Origin: Spirochaetia bacterium | GTDB lineage: Bacteria > Spirochaetota > Spirochaetia > UBA9216 | Length of the DNA stretch: 64,000 nt | Reading direction: 5' to 3' | Assembly (NCBI GenBank): GCA_963677925.2 | Contig: CAXXYH010000004.1 | Coordinates: 320,001-384,000, forward strand | Part shown: positions 1,084 through 43,846 of the stretch, one piece after another | Layout: the number at the start of each line of letters is the position of its first letter | Position numbering within the stretch: position 1 is the stretch's first letter | The notes under the pieces: model-generated | Databases searched by the model: none | The model's input: the letters and a program-made list of their open reading frames with translations, nothing else | What the model was told of the DNA's origin: nothing | Translations under genes and position numbers: made by a program

Positions 1084-1207
1084 CCTTCTAGTACTTTTTC
1101 ATTATAACCAAAAATTAATAGAAATTCGAAAAAAACGACTTGCCACGTCCAAATTCATGTGATGAAATGATTATTACACAAAAATTAGTAAAAAAGAGGA
1201 CGTTGCC

Positions 1208-2086
1208 ATGAAATTAAACCTATCAAAGTTCTGTCAGACCCGTTTCAATGTAATGATGTTCAAAAAGTTCAACCCTTACCTGTGTTTCAGTTACATGCAG
1301 ACACTAGGAAAAATTTACTACGCGCTCAATAAAAAAGAGAGGGATCTAATCAAAACTAACATTCGGGATCTGCTTGAAGGTAGAGATGAACAATTCATCC
1401 GGAAGACAACTAAAGAGGCTTTCAGGGGTATTTTCACTCACTACTTTGAGAAAATGTTTTCAGCCTATCGTAACTATCCTGAAATAAAGAAATTCATGCA
1501 GCAGAAATTTACAATTGAAAACGAACACCTCATCCAGAATGCGCTTGCTGAAGGCAAGGGTGTTGTTCTTGTCACAGCACACTGGGGAGCAGTGGAATTT
1601 ATTCCCTGGCTTCTGGCTCTGAAAGGCTACCCCATCAGTGTTATTCTTGAATGCCAGACAGATCTCCTGATGGAATCTTTAAATGATAAAACCCGCTTTG
1701 TTGACGCGGAACTAATAACTGAAGACAACTGCAGAAATGTACTGTTTGAAGCCTTCGGATGCCTCAGCAGAAACAGGGTTCTCATGACAGAATGTGATGA
1801 AGTTGATAAATGGAGAAAAAGGAAAACCCAGACTATTAACCTCTTCGGTAAAACTCTTTATTTTGACAACACACTTGATGTTCTGGCAAGAAAGGCCGAC
1901 TGTCCGGTTATAGGAACCTTCCTAAAAAGAAACGGAAACGGAACTTATACACTGTTCTGTGAAGAAATTGAACGCGGAAGAGGGACAGCTAAGAACGCAC
2001 TTGAGATGTGGCAGAAATATGTTTCCGAGAATCCTGAACAGTGGTATCAGTGGAAAAAGTGGAACAAGATGAAGGCTGCCGTCTAA
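1208..2086 (+). CDS. Lysophospholipid / LpxL-HtrB-family acyltransferase
   Basis: GKGVVLVTAHWGAVE (HxxxxE) and NPEQWYQW C-terminal motif; SD AGAGGA upstream. Confidence 0.8.
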   Translation: MKLNLSKFCQTRFNVMMFKKFNPYLCFSYMQTLGKIYYALNKKERDLIKTNIRDLLEGRDEQFIRKTTKEAFRGIFTHYFEKMFSAYRNYPEIKKFMQQKFTIENEHLIQNALAEGKGVVLVTAHWGAVEFIPWLLALKGYPISVILECQTDLLMESLNDKTRFVDAELITEDNCRNVLFEAFGCLSRNRVLMTECDEVDKWRKRKTQTINLFGKTLYFDNTLDVLARKADCPVIGTFLKRNGNGTYTLFCEEIERGRGTAKNALEMWQKYVSENPEQWYQWKKWNKMKAAV

Positions 2087-2862
2087 TTGAGTTTTGTATC
2101 GGCAATCTTTTTTTCAATATTCTCCTGCAGCGTTTCGAAGATAAAGGAATGGATCCGGTTTTTAGTTGCCGGGTCTGTTCTTTTATCAAAAAGAAGAACA
2201 TAGATAATATTGTTACCTTCCGCACGGCGGCCGATAACAGGCCCTGAAACCCTTGCAAGCTTTCCTTTCAGTTTGACCTGCATATCAGAAAGAACGGTAT
2301 TCTGGGGAATATTCACATCATCGGTAGTAGAAAAAGCCATACCGACAGAACTGATATCTCTTATTATTCCGGAGCGCAGGCTTCCGTTAAAATTAAAATT
2401 ATATTCAGTATTTTTAAGTTCGCTGCTGTCGATTCGGAGGTACTTTCTACGGCCTTTTGCCTCATTTGCTTCAAGAGTCTTTAAAATAATTTTTTTGCTC
2501 TGCTCAAGCCCCAGTTTAAGAATGACGTACCCGCAGGGAATCATAAGATCCATCAGGTACTTTTCAGCCATTGATTTATCTTCATTATAGGTTACTACAC
2601 CAAGCATGGCTGAATTGTCATCACTTTCCATCATCTCTTTAATATATTCAAACCAGTCATTATCTTTAAGAGCTTCATCAATATTTACAAAGACAATGGG
2701 ATCCTGATATTCGGATATCAATTTCCTGAGTCTCTGATGATCGCGTACCTGATATACTGCATACTCATTTTCAACCAGCTCTTTAACCAGTTCCTGTTTT
2801 ATCACACTATGAGGATATAAAAAGAATACCACTTTGGAATCGAAAGTGTTGCTGCCGTTCAT
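2083..2862 (-). CDS. PilZ-domain c-di-GMP receptor with degenerate REC-like N-terminus
   Basis: RRKYLR (RxxxR) and DISSVG (DxSxxG). Start moved to ATG 2862 because of SD AGGAG. Confidence 0.8.
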   Translation of the reverse strand: MNGSNTFDSKVVFFLYPHSVIKQELVKELVENEYAVYQVRDHQRLRKLISEYQDPIVFVNIDEALKDNDWFEYIKEMMESDDNSAMLGVVTYNEDKSMAEKYLMDLMIPCGYVILKLGLEQSKKIILKTLEANEAKGRRKYLRIDSSELKNTEYNFNFNGSLRSGIIRDISSVGMAFSTTDDVNIPQNTVLSDMQVKLKGKLARVSGPVIGRRAEGNNIIYVLLFDKRTDPATKNRIHSFIFETLQENIEKKIADTKLN

Positions 2863-2943
2863 CAAGTCTCCTGAATTAAGATTAGGCCATGTTCCAATTT
2901 CAATCAAGCTGTAATTTTTCAATTTCTGTGCTATTTTTAACTG

Positions 2944-3498
2944 ATGAAATTAATTTCTTTCCTTGGAAACAAGGGTAAAAAATATGAAAAAACAAGGCAC
3001 AACCTGGCCTGGATTGTATCAGAAGATGTAAATAATCTTAATTCTGCGGTCTGGAATTCCAAATTCAATGCAGACTTCACCAGCTTAAAAAAGAACGGCA
3101 CAATTTATCTTTTAAAACCAATGACTCTAATGAATCGAAGCGGGCAAAGTATCGCCGCGGCTATGAATTTTTATAAACTGAAACCTTCTGATCTTGTCGT
3201 TGTTCATGACGATCTTGAACTGCCGTTCGGAACAGTCCAGCTTAGAAAAGGCGGCGGCACAGCAGGTCATAACGGATTAAAATCCATTGTCAGCCAGATC
3301 GGTGCTTCAGATTTCATCCGCTTCAGACTCGGCATTTCAAGACCGCCCTCCGGCTGGAACGTTTCAGATTTTGTACTGAGCAGGTTTTCACCAGAGGAAG
3401 AGGCTGAACTTGATGACTATGCAGCTGCTGCGGCCGCAGTAATCGACAGGCTTATCGACGGGAACTCTGTCGATGAATGTAAAATCAAACTCATTTAG
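2944..3498 (+). CDS. pth: Peptidyl-tRNA hydrolase
   Basis: LGNKG..YEKTRHNL, KPMTLMNRSG, VHDDLELP, GGTAGHNGLKSI motifs. Confidence 0.97.
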   Translation: MKLISFLGNKGKKYEKTRHNLAWIVSEDVNNLNSAVWNSKFNADFTSLKKNGTIYLLKPMTLMNRSGQSIAAAMNFYKLKPSDLVVVHDDLELPFGTVQLRKGGGTAGHNGLKSIVSQIGASDFIRFRLGISRPPSGWNVSDFVLSRFSPEEEAELDDYAAAAAAVIDRLIDGNSVDECKIKLI

Positions 3499-38161: not shown

Positions 38162-39802
38162 TTATAAAAAGTCAATAAAGTTCTTCAGCGAGAAAATAAC
38201 ATGAGCAGCAATTTCAATATCATTACGTTCTGCGCTTTCAATATGGTTATAGTTGTTTATTACAGACCAGTAAAAATCAGCGCCGAAGCTCAGGAACTCA
38301 AACATCTTATATGTACCGTACAGGTTAAAAATATGTGAGGCTTCCACCGTTCCGGTCGGAGTAATATCATCAGAAGACGGAGCCCATGAGTCGGCAATTG
38401 TCTTTTCACCCTGCTGGAGGTAGGTATAATCAATGCCGGCAGAATATTTATCCTGAACATCATATTTTATTGTAAAATACCATACCATTGAATCAGGTCC
38501 GTATTTATACCCAATCGGTTTCGTTATATATTCATACTGATCGGTTACCAGAGACCAGTATCTTCTGACATTGTAATAATATGGAGAAGCTTTCCTATTA
38601 TACATCCACGGAGAGGTCAAAACCCATTCAGCGCCGTATGACAAGTAGCCATCACCAAGCGGATAAGCACCCTTACCTCCTGCCATATAGCCGAAGACCG
38701 GAGGACCGCCCCCGCCGTCACGATCAGATTCATATTCAGTAGCAAATTCATCCATGGCAACCTGACCATAGATGTTGATATATCTCCACGGATTAATTGA
38801 GACTTCTGCAGACAGTAATGAATTACATCTTTCAGTATCCAGCCAGTTGTGAAAGATCATCAAGTAATTGGAATCATGAATAAGACTGTAATCCTCATCG
38901 AAAGTCACAGACTCAGCTATTGCAGCCTGAATACGGCCGTCCCAGAAGCGGGCTTCAAAGCGGTGCCCCATAAAGGCAGCATAATCTATGGACGTATCAT
39001 CGTAACTGAAGGGTTCCAGAACTGAATACACGCTGGTAAATGTGAAATTTTCCGATCTGAGCTTCATCTGTAGAAAATCATAGTAGGTACTGTAGTCTGA
39101 AAGCATCAGGTTTCCGGATAAGCCGTTTCCCCATGAAAGCTGGTCGCGGCCGAAGTAAATATCCCACCATTCACCGCCGAATGATGACACAGCCCTGAAC
39201 GGCGCGTAAATATCTATTCTTGGACTGGGATCGTCAAAAATCAGATTGGAATAATTATAAGCCACATCTTCGGTATCAGGAGAAGTTACTGTTCTGAATT
39301 CCTCCTTTACCTCAATATCCATAATCATGTACAGAGACTCGGCAAACCAGAACTCCAGAGGTATATCGAGAAAAGAAGAGCGTTCATCATAACCGTAATT
39401 CCATTCGTAACTCTGAGCTGTTTCAGCTTCGGTATCTTCCAGTTCAAAGTGGTAGAAACCTTCAGGAGTTAAAATTAGATCAGTATTGAACTGATAATTA
39501 TCTTCATTTACAAGCAGCTCATCTTTATCTATAAACTCCTGTATATAATCATAAGCCTGTTTTCCAACCTCTGAAAGGATCCGGTAGTGAACCTTTGATA
39601 AAGAATTTTTCACTTCCTGATAAGTCCAGGGTCTTGCAGTTTCCGGCTGAGCCAGCCCGGACTCGTAATAGAGATTATCAATAAGCCGGTATAAATCAGA
39701 TGAAACAGGGAGTACCGTCCTCATATTCTGGGCAAATACTAATCCCGCAGTCAGACTTAATACAATGATCAGAATAAAGAAAATTGGTCGATTTCTGTTC
39801 AC
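38162..39802 (-). CDS. Capsule assembly Wzi-family outer-membrane protein
   Basis: TARPWT, FGRDQLSWGNG.SGNLMLSD, GHRFE, PIGYKYGPDS. Confidence 0.7.
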   Translation of the reverse strand: MNRNRPIFFILIIVLSLTAGLVFAQNMRTVLPVSSDLYRLIDNLYYESGLAQPETARPWTYQEVKNSLSKVHYRILSEVGKQAYDYIQEFIDKDELLVNEDNYQFNTDLILTPEGFYHFELEDTEAETAQSYEWNYGYDERSSFLDIPLEFWFAESLYMIMDIEVKEEFRTVTSPDTEDVAYNYSNLIFDDPSPRIDIYAPFRAVSSFGGEWWDIYFGRDQLSWGNGLSGNLMLSDYSTYYDFLQMKLRSENFTFTSVYSVLEPFSYDDTSIDYAAFMGHRFEARFWDGRIQAAIAESVTFDEDYSLIHDSNYLMIFHNWLDTERCNSLLSAEVSINPWRYINIYGQVAMDEFATEYESDRDGGGGPPVFGYMAGGKGAYPLGDGYLSYGAEWVLTSPWMYNRKASPYYYNVRRYWSLVTDQYEYITKPIGYKYGPDSMVWYFTIKYDVQDKYSAGIDYTYLQQGEKTIADSWAPSSDDITPTGTVEASHIFNLYGTYKMFEFLSFGADFYWSVINNYNHIESAERNDIEIAAHVIFSLKNFIDFL

Positions 39803-39826: not shown

Positions 39827-40897
39827 TTATCTTTCAGTATAATTCTGTTCCATCCACTTAAGGTATTCGCCGGATTTAACAGTTTCAATCCAATCCCGGT
39901 TTTCCAGGTACCATTTAACAGTCTCTTTTAGGCCTGAATCAAAGCTGTAAGCCTGTTTCCATTTGAGTTCTGTTTTCAGCCTTGAGCAGTCGATTGCATA
40001 ACGTCTGTCATGTCCGGGTCTATCCTTTACATAGGTTATCAGTTTTTTATAGTAATCCTTGTCCTTGCCCTTAAGTTCAGCAACTATTTCACAGAGACTG
40101 TTCACCAGCCTGATATTTTCCCACTCGTTTTCACCGCCGATATTATAGGAACGGCCGGTTTCGCCGTCATTCACTATAGTCCACACCGCGGAATTGTGAT
40201 CTTCCACATACAGCCAGTCTCGTATATTTTTTCCATCCCCGTATACCGGCAGAGGTTTCTCTTTAACCATGTTTTCAATCATGACGGGGATTAGCTTCTC
40301 GGGAAACTGGTATGGGCCGTAATTGTTGGAACAGTTTGAAAGGGTAATAGGCATTCCGTATGTGTGGTTGTAGGCTCTCACAAGATGATCAGATGAGGCT
40401 TTGGCAGCAGAATAAGGACTTCTCGGATCATAGGGAGTATCCTCATGGAAATATCCTTCATCGCCAAGACTTCCGTATACTTCATCAGTACTTACATGGT
40501 GGAAGAGCTTTCCCTCAAAATCACCCCAATGGTCCCTTGCTGACTCGAGGAGGTTGAAGGTTCCGTTAATATTAGTGGTGATAAACTGTCCAGGCTCGGT
40601 AATTGAACGGTCAACATGACTTTCAGCAGCAAGGTGTATAATTGTGTCTATTTCATAATGCTTTATAACATTGTCAATTTCAGGTTTATCTCTAATATCA
40701 ACTTTTTCAAAGAAATAGCGCTCTCCGCCGAATTCCTTATCTATATCATCAAGGCTGTAGGGATTTCCAGCATAGGTTAGAGCATCAAGATTGACAATCT
40801 TTCCGTTAAAATCCGTCTTCTTAAACATATAGCGGATGAGGTTTGAACCGATAAATCCGGCACCGCCGGTTACGAGTATGTTGGTAAGTTTTCTCAT
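39827..40897 (-). CDS. rmlB: dTDP-glucose 4,6-dehydratase
   Basis: TGGAGFIG, HLAAESHVDRS, STDEVYG, YSAAKA, DRPGHDRRY. Confidence 0.97.
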   Translation of the reverse strand: MRKLTNILVTGGAGFIGSNLIRYMFKKTDFNGKIVNLDALTYAGNPYSLDDIDKEFGGERYFFEKVDIRDKPEIDNVIKHYEIDTIIHLAAESHVDRSITEPGQFITTNINGTFNLLESARDHWGDFEGKLFHHVSTDEVYGSLGDEGYFHEDTPYDPRSPYSAAKASSDHLVRAYNHTYGMPITLSNCSNNYGPYQFPEKLIPVMIENMVKEKPLPVYGDGKNIRDWLYVEDHNSAVWTIVNDGETGRSYNIGGENEWENIRLVNSLCEIVAELKGKDKDYYKKLITYVKDRPGHDRRYAIDCSRLKTELKWKQAYSFDSGLKETVKWYLENRDWIETVKSGEYLKWMEQNYTER

Positions 40898-41199
40898 AGT
40901 ATTTTTATTCCTTTCTTTTTTATTTCCGGTATTATAGGAAGTTGTGAATTATCAAAATCATATTTGGAAAAGCCCAATGCATCAAAACGTATATCATATT
41001 CCTTTGCTTTGGCAAAAATTTCTCGTGGATTAAACTCATTTTCATCAACTATTACAGCCAAATCAATATCACTCCAGGAATCATAAGATCCTTCTGAATA
41101 AGAACCAAATAAAAAAATATTCTGGATTTTGTATTCTTTTTTTAACTCATCACAGAACCTTTTGATAGTTATACGAATGGAATCATCGATTTCAACCAT
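40894..41199 (-). CDS. Minimal nucleotidyltransferase (MNT, MntA-like)
   Basis: 101 aa; LFGSYSEGSYDSWSDIDLAV (GSx10DxD); SD AAGGAG. Confidence 0.9.
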   Translation of the reverse strand: MVEIDDSIRITIKRFCDELKKEYKIQNIFLFGSYSEGSYDSWSDIDLAVIVDENEFNPREIFAKAKEYDIRFDALGFSKYDFDNSQLPIIPEIKKKGIKIL

Positions 41200-42416
41200 T
41201 GATAAATCTCCTTTCCATTTTCTAAAATATATTCTGAACGTGTCTTATCAACATCTTTTGACAGAGATTTTATTCTCTCACCATATCTGCTTGCTATATA
41301 ATAATATGAAAGATCATTAAATAGTTCTTTTCTCTCTTCTTCAATTTTTATACCAAATCCATTTGCTAATCTTAACAAGTCATGTATCCGCGGGACAGAA
41401 ATACCATTATATTCATATAAAGCTTTTAGTGCTTTTTCAATACATTGTTGTACTGTAATTAAGACATAAAGATACCTGCCTGAATCATGCATGGATGATG
41501 CCGTCTCTATATCATATTCTGCATGTTCAATCCAGTTTTCCACTCTTGAAAACAGCTTATTACATTCCTTCAGAAATTTCTCAAGACTTTCCTGCCAGGA
41601 TTCAACATTGTAGCTGAAGACCTTTTTGACTTTTTCCTTGGAAAGAAGCGAGTATTCCGGACGCTTTACCTTTGCAGGAAATTCATAGCTTGTACATGAA
41701 CCAACATTACAATCATTCGTGACTAAACCGAGATTTCGTCCCATCCTGTAAATCTCTGATGCAAATTCAAACCAAGTACACTGGTTTTCTCCGGACAGAT
41801 GATAAAGGCCGTAATCGGTTGAATCAGTCTGAATAATTGTTTTTATCAGTCCTGTGAGCAGTTTAGTCCAGGTCGGGGAACCATGCTGATCATTAACTAC
41901 CTTTATAGAGTCACGGCTGTTCATAAGTTTTATCATCGTAAAAACGAAGTTGGGTCCGTACTGACCATAGAGCCAGGCGGTACGGATGATAAAATGCCTG
42001 CTGTTGGTGCCGGCAATTGCCTGCTCACCTTCAAGCTTACTCCGGCCATAGACTGATACAGGTCCAGTTTGTGCCTGTTCGGAAAGAGGAGTACTGCTGC
42101 TGCCGTCAAAAACATAGTCTGTTGATATATGAATTACAGGAATTTCAAGCTCTGTGGACAGTTTTCCGATATTCCCGGCACCGTCACGATTAAGCGCATA
42201 GGCTAATTCGCTTTCTTCCTCAGCCTTTTCAACAGCGGTGTAGGCGGAACAGTTCACAATCCAGTCCGGTTTATTTACTTCCGCATATTCTTTCAATGCT
42301 TCAGGCTCAAGAATTGAAACTTCCCGATCCGTTCCGCAGAAATCCATGCCGGCCTGCTTAAACTCCTCAGACAGCTCTGTGCCGAGCATTCCCTTATTAC
42401 CGATAATCCAGATCAT
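41169..42416 (-). CDS. rmlD: dTDP-4-dehydrorhamnose reductase fused to a C-terminal HEPN domain
   Basis: aa 1-284: GNKGMLG, STDYVFDG, YGRSK, DQHGSPT. aa 285-415: W...A.YD...A, QQCIEKALKAL, P.IHDL..L, YYIASRY. Confidence 0.9.
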   Translation of the reverse strand: MIWIIGNKGMLGTELSEEFKQAGMDFCGTDREVSILEPEALKEYAEVNKPDWIVNCSAYTAVEKAEEESELAYALNRDGAGNIGKLSTELEIPVIHISTDYVFDGSSSTPLSEQAQTGPVSVYGRSKLEGEQAIAGTNSRHFIIRTAWLYGQYGPNFVFTMIKLMNSRDSIKVVNDQHGSPTWTKLLTGLIKTIIQTDSTDYGLYHLSGENQCTWFEFASEIYRMGRNLGLVTNDCNVGSCTSYEFPAKVKRPEYSLLSKEKVKKVFSYNVESWQESLEKFLKECNKLFSRVENWIEHAEYDIETASSMHDSGRYLYVLITVQQCIEKALKALYEYNGISVPRIHDLLRLANGFGIKIEEERKELFNDLSYYYIASRYGERIKSLSKDVDKTRSEYILENGKEIYQWLKSMIPFV

Positions 42417-42958
42417 TTTAAAACCTTTAAAAAGGGAAGCGTTTCATCTTTGGCAGATACTGAAGGAGTAATTCCACTCAACGGCCATTGCACAGCAACT
42501 TCGGGATCATTCCATTTGATCCCACCGTCAGCTGTCGGTGCATACTCTGCGGTACATTTGTATAGAAAGTGGGTATTGTCTGTCAGAGTCAGAAAGCCGT
42601 GAGCGAACCCCGGCGGGATATAAAACATCTTTCCATTTTCTTCAGTTAACTCTACACCAACCCACTTTCCGTAGGTTTCGGACTCTTCACGAAGATCAAC
42701 TCCTACATCCCAGACAGCGCCTTTAACAACACGTACCAATTTACCCTGGGCATGGGGTTCTGTCTGGAAATGCAGGCCTCTAAGAACACCTTTTGAAGAG
42801 AGAGAGTGGTTGTCCTGAACAAAATCTTCGGCTATTCCAGCGTTTACAAACTCAGACTTTTTGTAAGTTTCCATAAAAAAACCGCGGTCATCAGGAAATT
42901 TCCGCGGTTCAATTATGATAAGTCCTTCAATATCAGTTTTAACAAAATTAAAAGGCAT
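42413..42958 (-). CDS. rmlC: dTDP-4-dehydrorhamnose 3,5-epimerase
   Basis: DDRGFFME, QDNHS.S.KGVLRGLH, PPGFAHGF. Confidence 0.97.
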   Translation of the reverse strand: MPFNFVKTDIEGLIIIEPRKFPDDRGFFMETYKKSEFVNAGIAEDFVQDNHSLSSKGVLRGLHFQTEPHAQGKLVRVVKGAVWDVGVDLREESETYGKWVGVELTEENGKMFYIPPGFAHGFLTLTDNTHFLYKCTAEYAPTADGGIKWNDPEVAVQWPLSGITPSVSAKDETLPFLKVLK

Positions 42959-42976: not shown

Positions 42977-43846
42977 TTATAATGTTTCGATGTAATGCTG
43001 CAGATACTGTCCATAGGTTGATTTTGCGAGGGAGTCTGCAAGGTCTATCAGCTGTTTCTTATCAATGAAGCCCATTTTATAAGCAATTTCCTCGATACAG
43101 GCTATTTTAAGGCCCTGACGATCTTCTATTGTCTTTACATAGTTTGTTGCATCAACCAGTGAATCGTGAGTTCCGGTATCAAGCCAGGCAAAGCCCCTGC
43201 CCATCAGCTGAACTTTAAGCTCGTTCATTTTAAGATATTCGTTGTTAACTGTTGTAATTTCAAGCTCTCCACGGGCGGAAGGTTTAATATTATGAGCAAT
43301 ATCAATAACCCTGTTATCGTAAAAATACAGGCCGACAACAGCATAGTTTGATTTTGGTTCGGCTGGTTTTTCTTCAATGGATAATGCTGTGCCGTTTTCA
43401 TCAAAATCAACAACACCGTAACGTTCAGGATCCTTGACCCAGTATCCGAATACAGTAGCTCCTGATTTCTGAGCTGCGGCTTCCTGGACCATCTGGGAAA
43501 AATGATGTCCGTAGAAGATATTATCACCGAGGATCAGGCAGACGGAATCATCTCCGACAAAGTCTTTTCCAAGAATAAAGGCCTCAGCAAGCCCGTTAGG
43601 GGCATCCTGTATCTTGTATTCAATATTCAAACCAAGATGTGAACCGTCTTTGAATAATTCTTCGAATCTTGAAGTATCCTGAGGAGTGGAAATTATAAGA
43701 ATATCCTTGATACCTGCAAGCATCAGTGTGGAAAGCGGATAATAAATCATAGGTTTGTCATAAACAGGAAGAAGCTGCTTGCAGACAACCTGTGTCGCAG
43801 GAAAAAGTCTGGTGCCGGAACCTCCGGCAAGTATAATACCTTTCAC
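42977..43846 (-). CDS. rmlA: Glucose-1-phosphate thymidylyltransferase
   Basis: [32 protein letters not shown]. Confidence 0.97.

Follow-up and report, generated by a model that had tools for sequence, protein, structure and literature searches.

RmlD joined in frame to a Class II HEPN domain, with the MNT gene alongside: a conserved arrangement in dTDP-rhamnose operons of Spirochaetia

The RmlD-HEPN fusion in its operon

Analysis of a 64,000-nucleotide stretch from the genome of an uncultured environmental Spirochaetia bacterium (contig CAXXYH010000004.1, positions 320,001 to 384,000; hereafter the window, in whose own numbering positions are given) revealed a single tightly packed operon on the minus strand with the gene order rmlA-rmlC-rmlD-MNT-rmlB. 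In this operon the gene of the dTDP-rhamnose enzyme RmlD continues in frame into a HEPN domain and is followed by a gene for a minimal nucleotidyltransferase (MNT) (Table 1). A reading made earlier from the letters alone (the sequence-only reading) had described a 101-amino-acid (aa) MNT with the motif GSX10DXD, a 31-nt overlap between its open reading frame (ORF) and that of the fusion, and ATGA stop/start overlaps between MNT and rmlB and between rmlC and rmlD. All of this proved exact, with the ORF overlap at 41169-41199 and the ATGA overlaps at 40894-40897 and 42413-42416.

The Pfam model RmlD_sub_bind (PF04321) covers residues 2-285 of the 415-aa protein (E 1.1e-90), and with the NCBIfam rmlD equivalog TIGR01214 (cut-off 224.05) it reaches 291.5 bits over model positions 2-285 of 285. 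The same part aligns to the solved RmlD 1vl0 over residues 2-282 (E 1.6e-58). It contains G6-x2-G9-x2-G12, which we take to be the GxxGxxG nucleotide-binding motif of short-chain dehydrogenases/reductases, as well as T99 and Y123-x3-K127, presumably the Thr and Tyr-x3-Lys that are catalytic in RmlD. G12, T99, Y123 and K127 are invariant in 10 fused proteins, and G6 and G9 are conserved in at least 90%. The fused protein is the only one in the genome above the TIGR01214 cut-off, and the second PF04321 match (140.5 bits) lies outside any rml operon. We infer that the RmlD-HEPN protein remains a working dTDP-4-dehydrorhamnose reductase. It resembles stand-alone RmlD (PDB 1vl0, 3sc6, 1kbz) in its full-length match over residues 2-284 and in its rmlACDB operon, whereas the 6 solved RmlDs are 286-304 aa long and have no C-terminal domain.

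The RmlD part ends with LEKFLKE at codon 284 (nt 41565-41567), and the reading frame stays open onward into the HEPN domain, which PF05168 matches at residues 292-410; no stop codon separates the two, as the sequence-only reading had claimed. The same reading had seen no well-spaced Shine-Dalgarno site and start codon for a free HEPN, and where the free homologues start (residues ~287-290) both a Met and a Shine-Dalgarno-like motif are missing from the window and from the other fused proteins. In a full-length model (predicted local distance difference test, pLDDT, 86.4; predicted template modelling score, pTM, 0.81) the last RmlD helix and the first HEPN helix form one helix, residues 274-311. 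An out-of-frame ATGTAATAA at the junction was considered as the relic of an old stop codon; since it is not conserved in other fused genes, we treat it as a chance occurrence.

Table 1. Position of the rml operon features in the window
Feature	Position	Strand	Evidence
rmlA (glucose-1-phosphate thymidylyltransferase), first rml gene of the operon	42977..43846	-	Pfam NTP_transferase E 5.9e-77
rmlC (dTDP-4-dehydrorhamnose 3,5-epimerase)	42413..42958	-	Pfam dTDP_sugar_isom E 3.4e-74
Fusion ORF RmlD-HEPN, 415 aa	41169..42416	-	Open reading frame
RmlD domain of the fusion, residues 1-285	41562..42416	-	PF04321 residues 2-285
HEPN domain, residues 286-415 and stop codon, Class II / PF05168 type	41169..41561	-	PF05168 residues 292-410
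Shine-Dalgarno-like AAGGAG, 8 nt before the MNT start, within the HEPN coding end	41208..41213	-	Read from sequence
MNT (minimal nucleotidyltransferase), 101 aa	40894..41199	-	Pfam NTP_transf_2 E 3.5e-11; Polbeta E 2.1e-10
rmlB (dTDP-glucose 4,6-dehydratase), last of the rml block	39827..40897	-	GDP_Man_Dehyd E 1.2e-92; Epimerase E 2e-67
Near-identity block: last RmlD codons, HEPN, MNT, first rmlB bases	40882..41601	.	98.6% identical to same-genus relative

Distribution and history of the fusion

A protein search with the HEPN part, limited to proteins of 228-727 aa, gave 189 scored candidates, among which 9 proteins of 406-431 aa combine RmlD and HEPN, the HEPN part being 55-98% identical. 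In 401 sampled Spirochaetia genomes, a HEPN profile uncovered frames of 406-424 aa in G000, G001, G016, G046, G169 and G249, and a fused copy cut by the contig end in G008 (its protein is P0013); the fusion is therefore present in 7 of the 401 genomes, and these 7 belong to 5 families. Matching loci in a species-representative collection bear the titles Spirochaetia, Spirochaetales or Spirochaetaceae bacterium. When 1.84 billion cluster representatives were searched with a profile, 6,728 HEPN relatives were obtained at E <= 1e-3, and among the best 150 of these we scanned the 10 longer proteins with Pfam. Six are RmlD-HEPN proteins (P0014, P0033, P0044, P0051, P0136 and P0138), and the remaining ones are a cytidylate kinase-HEPN (P0116), an MNT-HEPN (P0117) and two with HEPN alone. 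At 50% identity the fused proteins make 7 clusters, counting the contig-cut protein of G008, and a metagenome scan added 4 fused loci among the 80 kept of 293 relatives. For the fused loci with DNA (the window, L014, L015, L016, L024, L046, L068 and L087-L090, with L087 and L088 looking conspecific), MNT is directly downstream in 11/11 and rmlB comes next in 10/11. In L068, from a GC-rich spirochaete, RmlD-HEPN and MNT stand together, though the next gene, after a gap, is rmlA and the upstream gene is not rmlC.

An error of sequencing or assembly, or a recent stop loss in one strain, would explain the junction as an artefact, and the origin of the window in a metagenome-assembled genome (MAG) gives this explanation some ground. 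A Logan contig of run X1 covers 40700-42600 with 0 differences, but X1, the sole run spanning the junction, may itself be the source of the window DNA; runs X2 and X3 offer only pieces of 18-151 nt over the region, and one X3 contig joins opposite strands. Nevertheless, independent assemblies and metagenomes contain this junction too, likewise in frame, with HEPN parts that are 36-98% identical. It is this conservation, and not the reads, that shows the junction to be real; an artefact is very improbable, and the one-strain accident for which the sequence-only reading had allowed is set aside by the recurrence of the junction in other assemblies. These data firmly establish that an intact RmlD is joined in frame to a Class II HEPN domain, its MNT alongside, and that this arrangement is conserved.

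The number of genomes carrying RmlD puts the fusion in proportion. An RmlD above the TIGR01214 cut-off occurs in 122 of the 401 class genomes and is fused in 6 of them (the copy in G008 being contig-cut), so that about 1 in 20 RmlDs is fused. In 5 genomes of the same family the protein query found no close RmlD, and in four of these (G004, G006, G007 and G010) the family model gave matches below its cut-off. The long RmlD frames of L078-L081 and L083-L086 were examined as further C-terminal fusions and rejected, 7 of the 8 being upstream read-through; in L086 (G108:C236), the RmlD region at 1466-2584 takes 1119 nt for 283 query residues, which corresponds to an insertion of about 90 aa within RmlD.

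The nearest free relatives of the HEPN part (32-49% identity) are HEPN-then-MNT pairs of Deltaproteobacteria, Chloroflexi, Bacteroidota, Nitrospira, Clostridia and others. An MNT match lies directly downstream in 19 of 25 free loci of a first set, and in 58 of the 65 free loci of the metagenome set that have at least 330 nt of room. Their neighbours comprise a TdeIII restriction enzyme with ScpA, an S49 peptidase with a pyrimidine-nucleoside phosphorylase, FolD, ABC ATPases, HipA and a nuclease, and sugar-modifying genes in two or three cases; as these neighbours are unrelated to each other, the pattern is that of a promiscuous small cassette. An unconstrained HEPN tree (133 columns) was poorly resolved and placed the fused sequences in four places. 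Separate origins of the fusion are not claimed from it, because a tree holding all 26 RmlD-fused HEPN rows as one clade had a better likelihood than the free quick tree (approximately unbiased test, AU, p 0.927). The one-clade constraint is thus not rejected, and the data agree with the fusion having arisen once. In the tree of RmlD, the 17 fused sequences among its 42 rows are interspersed with unfused ones; the tree needs 10 state changes, at least 4 of which are forced by well-supported branches. The origin of the HEPN/MNT part in a free two-gene cassette is well supported, and the sequence-only reading had reached a similar view in seeing a captured module tethered to a sugar-nucleotide enzyme, with which the free pairs of other phyla and the single fused clade allowed by the AU test agree.

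The comparison of the window with a same-genus relative points to a history of the cassette that differs from that of its flanks. The rml genes share 87-91% nucleotide identity, with 0.55-0.66 synonymous substitutions per site (dS), whereas the HEPN part is 98.2% identical (dS 0.065; 5 synonymous and 2 non-synonymous differences) and MNT is identical over 303/303 nt (dS 0). Sliding identity in 60-nt steps delimits a block from ~41601 to 40882, with 10 differences in 720 nt, which begins 40 nt ahead of the domain junction. The rmlD stretch that diverges most between the two congeners (41722-41781, 38/60 nt identical) lies about 120 nt further upstream; it may represent a scar of recombination or else encode a variable loop at the surface. 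The reverse situation is found between G016 and L089, where RmlD is 75% and RmlB 89% identical but HEPN only 41% and MNT 42%. In the window, the HEPN part and MNT have GC contents of 31% and 29%, compared with 42-44% in rmlA, rmlC, rmlD and rmlB, in agreement with the AT-richness noticed by the sequence-only reading, and at third codon positions (GC3) it is 21-22% against 37-44%. The deficit relative to the adjoining rml genes recurs in 6/6 lineages and amounts to 5-12 points (~10 in five, 5 in the GC-rich one); the GC content of the module has become adapted to every host but can still be told apart from it. The near-identity block, the G016/L089 mismatch and the GC deficit suggest that the cassette may move, or be replaced, independently of its rml flanks, and a partly independent, cassette-like history of HEPN/MNT is well supported.

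Other small cassettes were observed at rml junctions. In L015, positions 2401-3143 (+), between rmlC and rmlD-HEPN, encode a 97-aa MNT and, overlapping it, a 151-aa HepT-like ORF with RNVLTHEY (RX4HXY); its Pfam HepT-like match (E 7e-4) is below cut-off. A canonical Class I pair and a Class II HEPN/MNT module thus coexist in this rml operon. In an unfused relative, positions 1102-1601 (+) of L191, between rmlD and rmlB, encode an Unstab_antitox protein (E 1.4e-8) and a ParE-like ORF, the latter with 22.7 bits against a cut-off of 23. The presence of other toxin-antitoxin (TA)-like pairs at these junctions makes the tight spirochaete rml operon a recurrent landing site. In L082, positions 1401-3347 (+) show RmlD running in frame into RmlB (a 762-aa frame); this genome belongs to the genus of the fused G169, and the two RmlDs are sisters on the RmlD tree (support 97). 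As the downstream gene abuts rmlD, RmlD readily acquires C-terminal fusions.

Two further fused or formerly fused HEPNs deserve description. P0116 (344 aa) joins a cytidylate kinase (4-212) to a HEPN of the same subfamily (222-339) and is another pyrimidine-nucleotide enzyme with a C-terminal HEPN. A decayed RmlD-HEPN remnant lies at 2817-3081 (+) of L043, by its title in the same MAG as the intact fused L024. It comprises RmlD pieces in two frames together with the initial ~21 residues of the HEPN and is followed by a fragment of rmlB; a 216-aa ORF and an opposite-strand 462-aa ORF, both unannotated and resembling mobile-element genes, adjoin it.

The ~20 kb around the operon of the window form a surface-polysaccharide locus. 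They encode glycosyltransferases, a sugar transferase of Bac_transf type, a UDP-glucose dehydrogenase and a protein weakly matching the capsule assembly protein Wzi. The latter match (25.7 bits, cut-off 30.1) belongs to a 546-aa ORF just downstream of rmlB (38162-39802, -), which by this likeness may be an outer-membrane component of the glycan locus. Within the operon, 15 promoter-like sites against 13.7 +/- 4.2 in shuffles and 3 terminator-like sites against 5.0 +/- 2.9 gave no evidence of internal promoters or terminators. For 40700-42600 no RNA data set was listed.

The HEPN domain, the MNT and their pairing

The HEPN part matches PF05168 with E 1.3e-22 (80.6 bits, cut-off 22), the sole HEPN family matched, and not the HepT-type PF01934 or PF08780. 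According to the text of Yao et al. (2020, PMC7641770), pairs of PF05168 and PF01909 proteins constitute 'Class II HEPN/MNT', counted there at 9,583 sequences, with a GSX10DXD MNT, a conserved tyrosine and no RX4HXY motif. We compared 23 distinct fused HEPNs with 129 free ones. D302, E327, K328, K331, H345 and Y378 are each present in 100% of the fused and 96-99% of the free sequences, Y378 in 23/23 and 128/129, while R377 is found in 91% of the fused and 98% of the free HEPNs; every polar residue near-invariant in the free family is therefore retained in the fused set, R377 at that lower frequency. The change of R377 to Lys is one of just two amino acid differences between the HEPN parts of the window and its same-genus relative. 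The fused set differs from the free one in the loss of the Pro of 'RYP' (P379), a preference for Glu at 380 and a short C-terminal IPFV extension. A link between E327/K331 and catalytic residues of kanamycin nucleotidyltransferase was also considered; no result supported it and it was dropped as evidence.

An AlphaFold2 model of the HEPN domain (pLDDT 96.9) is closest to TT1696 (1ufb; template modelling score, TM, 0.78), ST0689 (1wol; TM 0.76) and AF_0298 (2hsb), the three spanning TM 0.74-0.78, followed by TM0613 (1o3u; TM 0.69) and the HEPN of human sacsin (3o10; TM 0.69-0.71), and is further from the HepT toxins (~0.55). Sequence searches agree, with profile matches to solved HEPNs at E 6e-14 to 3e-11. 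The prokaryotic ones among these nearest sequences and folds are structural-genomics proteins with no assigned function; unlike the window HEPN, all are free proteins except that of sacsin, which is located at the C-terminus of a giant chaperone-like protein, and none is fused to a sugar-nucleotide enzyme.

This likeness to HEPNs that are not toxins (TM 0.69-0.78), together with the missing RNase motif, the variation of R377 in 2/23 fused proteins and the decayed copy in L043, would fit a structural remnant, that is, a HEPN serving as a dimerisation or nucleotide-binding tail of RmlD, or as neutral baggage, beside an MNT that is a passenger without a role. However, all the other family-invariant polar residues and the catalytic residues of MNT are kept in every fused lineage, MNT is present in 11/11 fused loci, 10 divergent fused genes show no stops or frameshifts, and the HEPN parts of the window and its relative give a dN/dS of ~0.10, although on just 7 differences. 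We consider a remnant improbable, and purifying selection on the HEPN/MNT part, with all family-defining residues kept, is well supported.

MNT scores 43.8 bits against the NTP_transf_2 (PF01909) cut-off of 21, with an intact G32-S33-x10-D44-x-D46 motif; G32, S33, D44, D46, D69 and R71 are invariant in 7 orthologues. It has its own predicted ribosome-binding site inside the HEPN end, a purine-rich GGAG, GAGG or AGGA being found 7-10 nt upstream of its start in 11/11 fused loci. Besides a resemblance to the PADLOC candidate family PDC-S09 (E 8e-12), its best match of solved structure is the aminoglycoside nucleotidyltransferase (ANT) 4ebj (E 2.2e-4). The latter match speaks for the alternative of a split nucleotidyltransferase resembling kanamycin nucleotidyltransferase, in which the HEPN would be the subunit that binds the substrate, a small molecule would be the target and RmlD would serve as a tether near dTDP-sugar chemistry. 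Weak NCBIfam matches to ANT(4')-II (28.6 vs 350 bits) and Lnu(F) (22.2 vs 450 bits), the near-invariance of E327, K328 and K331 on helix 2 and the location of some free modules amid sugar-modifying genes (L030, L034) are consistent with it, as is the exaptation of HEPN as a substrate-binding domain of MNT described in the text of Anantharaman et al. (2013). Nonetheless, the ANT and Lnu scores are far under the family cut-offs and cover the shared N-terminal nucleotidyltransferase core alone, leaving the C-terminal substrate domain of those enzymes unmatched, and a profile of 65 HEPN sequences found no ANT chain or ANT C-terminal domain in the PDB. Since most free modules also lie outside sugar loci and no result points to a substrate, this alternative seems quite improbable.

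A predicted MNT-HEPN complex reached an interaction score (ipSAE) of 0.36 against 0.00 for the best of 3 controls, and the model runs share at least 97% of contacts, with partner pLDDT of at least 83. Of 80 solved complexes 58 attain the ipSAE mark, as do 2 of 110 mismatched pairs, and passes at or below 0.60 comprise just 7 of the 80 solved complexes but both passing mismatches. The model gives weak support to a predicted binding and, as HepT-MntA complexes are already solved, its pass may reflect likeness to them. The analogy with MntA/HepT, the conserved Tyr378 and the intact MNT site lead us to infer that MNT may bind the HEPN domain and most likely nucleotidylates Y378 of the RY motif.

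Such a modification might act as a regulatory switch, MNT nucleotidylating HEPN (or RmlD) and thereby changing the activity or oligomeric state of RmlD and tuning the dTDP-rhamnose supply. RmlD-HEPN and MNT staying together when their neighbours change (L068), a fusion kept over deep divergence (RmlD identity down to 43-50%), the conserved Y378 beside an intact MNT active site and the changes specific to the fused clade (P379 lost, E380 gained, IPFV extension) all speak for it, and in the model the continuous helix 274-311 would fix the geometry between the domains. On the other hand, just 6 of the 122 class genomes with RmlD above cut-off have it fused, close unfused RmlDs interleave with fused ones, and the cassette is exchanged independently of RmlD. 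The HEPN subfamily is also fused to cytidylate kinase and to MNT, and fusion to an upstream gene is therefore not specific to RmlD. A switch is accordingly unlikely, and its post-translational form, in which nucleotidylation of Tyr378 would gate RmlD dimerisation or activity and couple rhamnose-glycan synthesis to nucleotide status or phage attack, is about as unlikely.

Interpretation and relation to known systems

The reading that we favour, and to which we give about an even chance, is that of a captured, functional accessory Class II HEPN/MNT cassette, of addiction or defence type, anchored in frame to an intact RmlD. A two-gene cassette would have inserted itself between the rmlD and rmlB genes in a surface-polysaccharide locus, with the HEPN gene becoming joined in frame to the 3' end of rmlD. 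The HEPN domain and MNT would still act as a pair, like the free modules, and the cassette would be an accessory, semi-selfish passenger that moves from one rml operon to another through recombination within the conserved flanks. Its in-frame junction with RmlD would allow a clean loss by precise deletion only.

Several observations weigh against this reading. The HEPN lacks the Rx4-6H / RX4HXY RNase motif and reads SRYGERIK instead. The sequence-only reading was right about this absence, which is however not peculiar to the window copy but is, from the sequences compared, the rule for the whole PF05168 Class II family; the text of Anantharaman et al. (2013) likewise describes PF05168 ('HEPN-T') as often without the His. 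Classical RNase chemistry of the Rx4-6H kind is improbable for the HEPN effector. Two of the 23 fused proteins have another residue in place of R377, namely Lys in the same-genus relative (L003/L014) and Gln in P0006. The MntA equivalog NF047752 gives MNT 34.4 bits, below its cut-off of 60, and with a Class II HEPN as partner the earlier description of MNT as a cognate antitoxin of HepT/MntA type was overstated; moreover, the characterised MntA-HepT pairs have the reverse of the HEPN-first gene order seen here. A search of PADLOC with the HEPN gave no convincing match (best E 0.0037), and no relatives were found in viral contigs and only 2 weak matches in plasmids. In close unfused relatives rmlD abuts rmlB, without a HEPN or MNT remnant, so that both gain and loss of the fusion would fit. 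The near-identity block rests on one MAG pair, in which assembly or polishing artefacts are possible, and the retention across 5 families with a rigid single helix would also fit an adaptive link to RmlD. Lastly, the text of Yao et al. (2020, PMC7641770) reports Class II as being without any biochemical study, and our search of the later literature found no work on Class II toxicity or AMPylation. Among the three functions that the sequence-only reading had proposed, the addiction module or kill switch has the most indirect support, from the cassette-like exchange and the TA-like pairs at the same junctions; neither the switching of RmlD nor an action on a sugar intermediate was supported or contradicted.

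Among known systems, the free Class II HEPN/MNT pairs are the closest. As described in the text of Yao et al. (2020, PMC7641770), they share with the window unit the two Pfam families, the GSX10DXD MNT, the conserved Tyr, the lack of RX4HXY and adjacent, translationally coupled genes. They differ in that here HEPN is the C-terminal domain of RmlD and the pair lies inside a biosynthetic operon, with the HEPN gene first in this subfamily. Because the HEPN is in frame with RmlD, without a start codon or Shine-Dalgarno motif, the window unit is a fused variant of Class II. The type VII TA system HepT/MntA (Class I; SO_3166/SO_3165 of S. oneidensis, PDB 5yep and 7bxo) is alike in its HEPN fold with MNT, the shared MNT motif and a tyrosine next to a conserved Arg; in contrast, the window unit has no Rx4H motif, a TM of ~0.55, an MntA score under the cut-off and the reversed gene order, and is known from sequence and models. 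Fused MNT-HEPN TA proteins described in a 2026 study (NAR, PMC13000451) are likewise HEPNs covalently joined to another domain and under MNT control, but there the partner is MNT itself and the HEPN has the RNase motif, whereas here the partner is a metabolic enzyme and MNT is separate. The component families and the module class are thus already known, and the new part is the RmlD-HEPN architecture, its conservation and the cassette-like exchange. None of these three was described in the literature searched, and the supplementary tables of Yao et al. (2020), which that search did not cover, might list such fusions.

Class II HEPN/MNT pairs are known in thousands and their function has never been tested, and the RmlD fusion provides a natural handle on the family. 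RmlD has an easy assay and solved structures, so the fusion could serve as a built-in reporter of modification by MNT, with a clear genetic test. The fusion also fixes the dosage of HEPN, one being made per RmlD and just when the glycan operon is expressed. In addition, rml junctions collect small TA-like cassettes, which can travel between operons via flanking homology, and this bears on the stabilisation and diversification of surface-glycan loci. Even as just a passenger, the module would neatly illustrate how a mobile module can 'anchor' itself through fusion to a host gene; if the switch is true, a Class II HEPN/MNT pair would for the first time have a physiological role, and a nucleotide-sugar pathway would be regulated in a new way.

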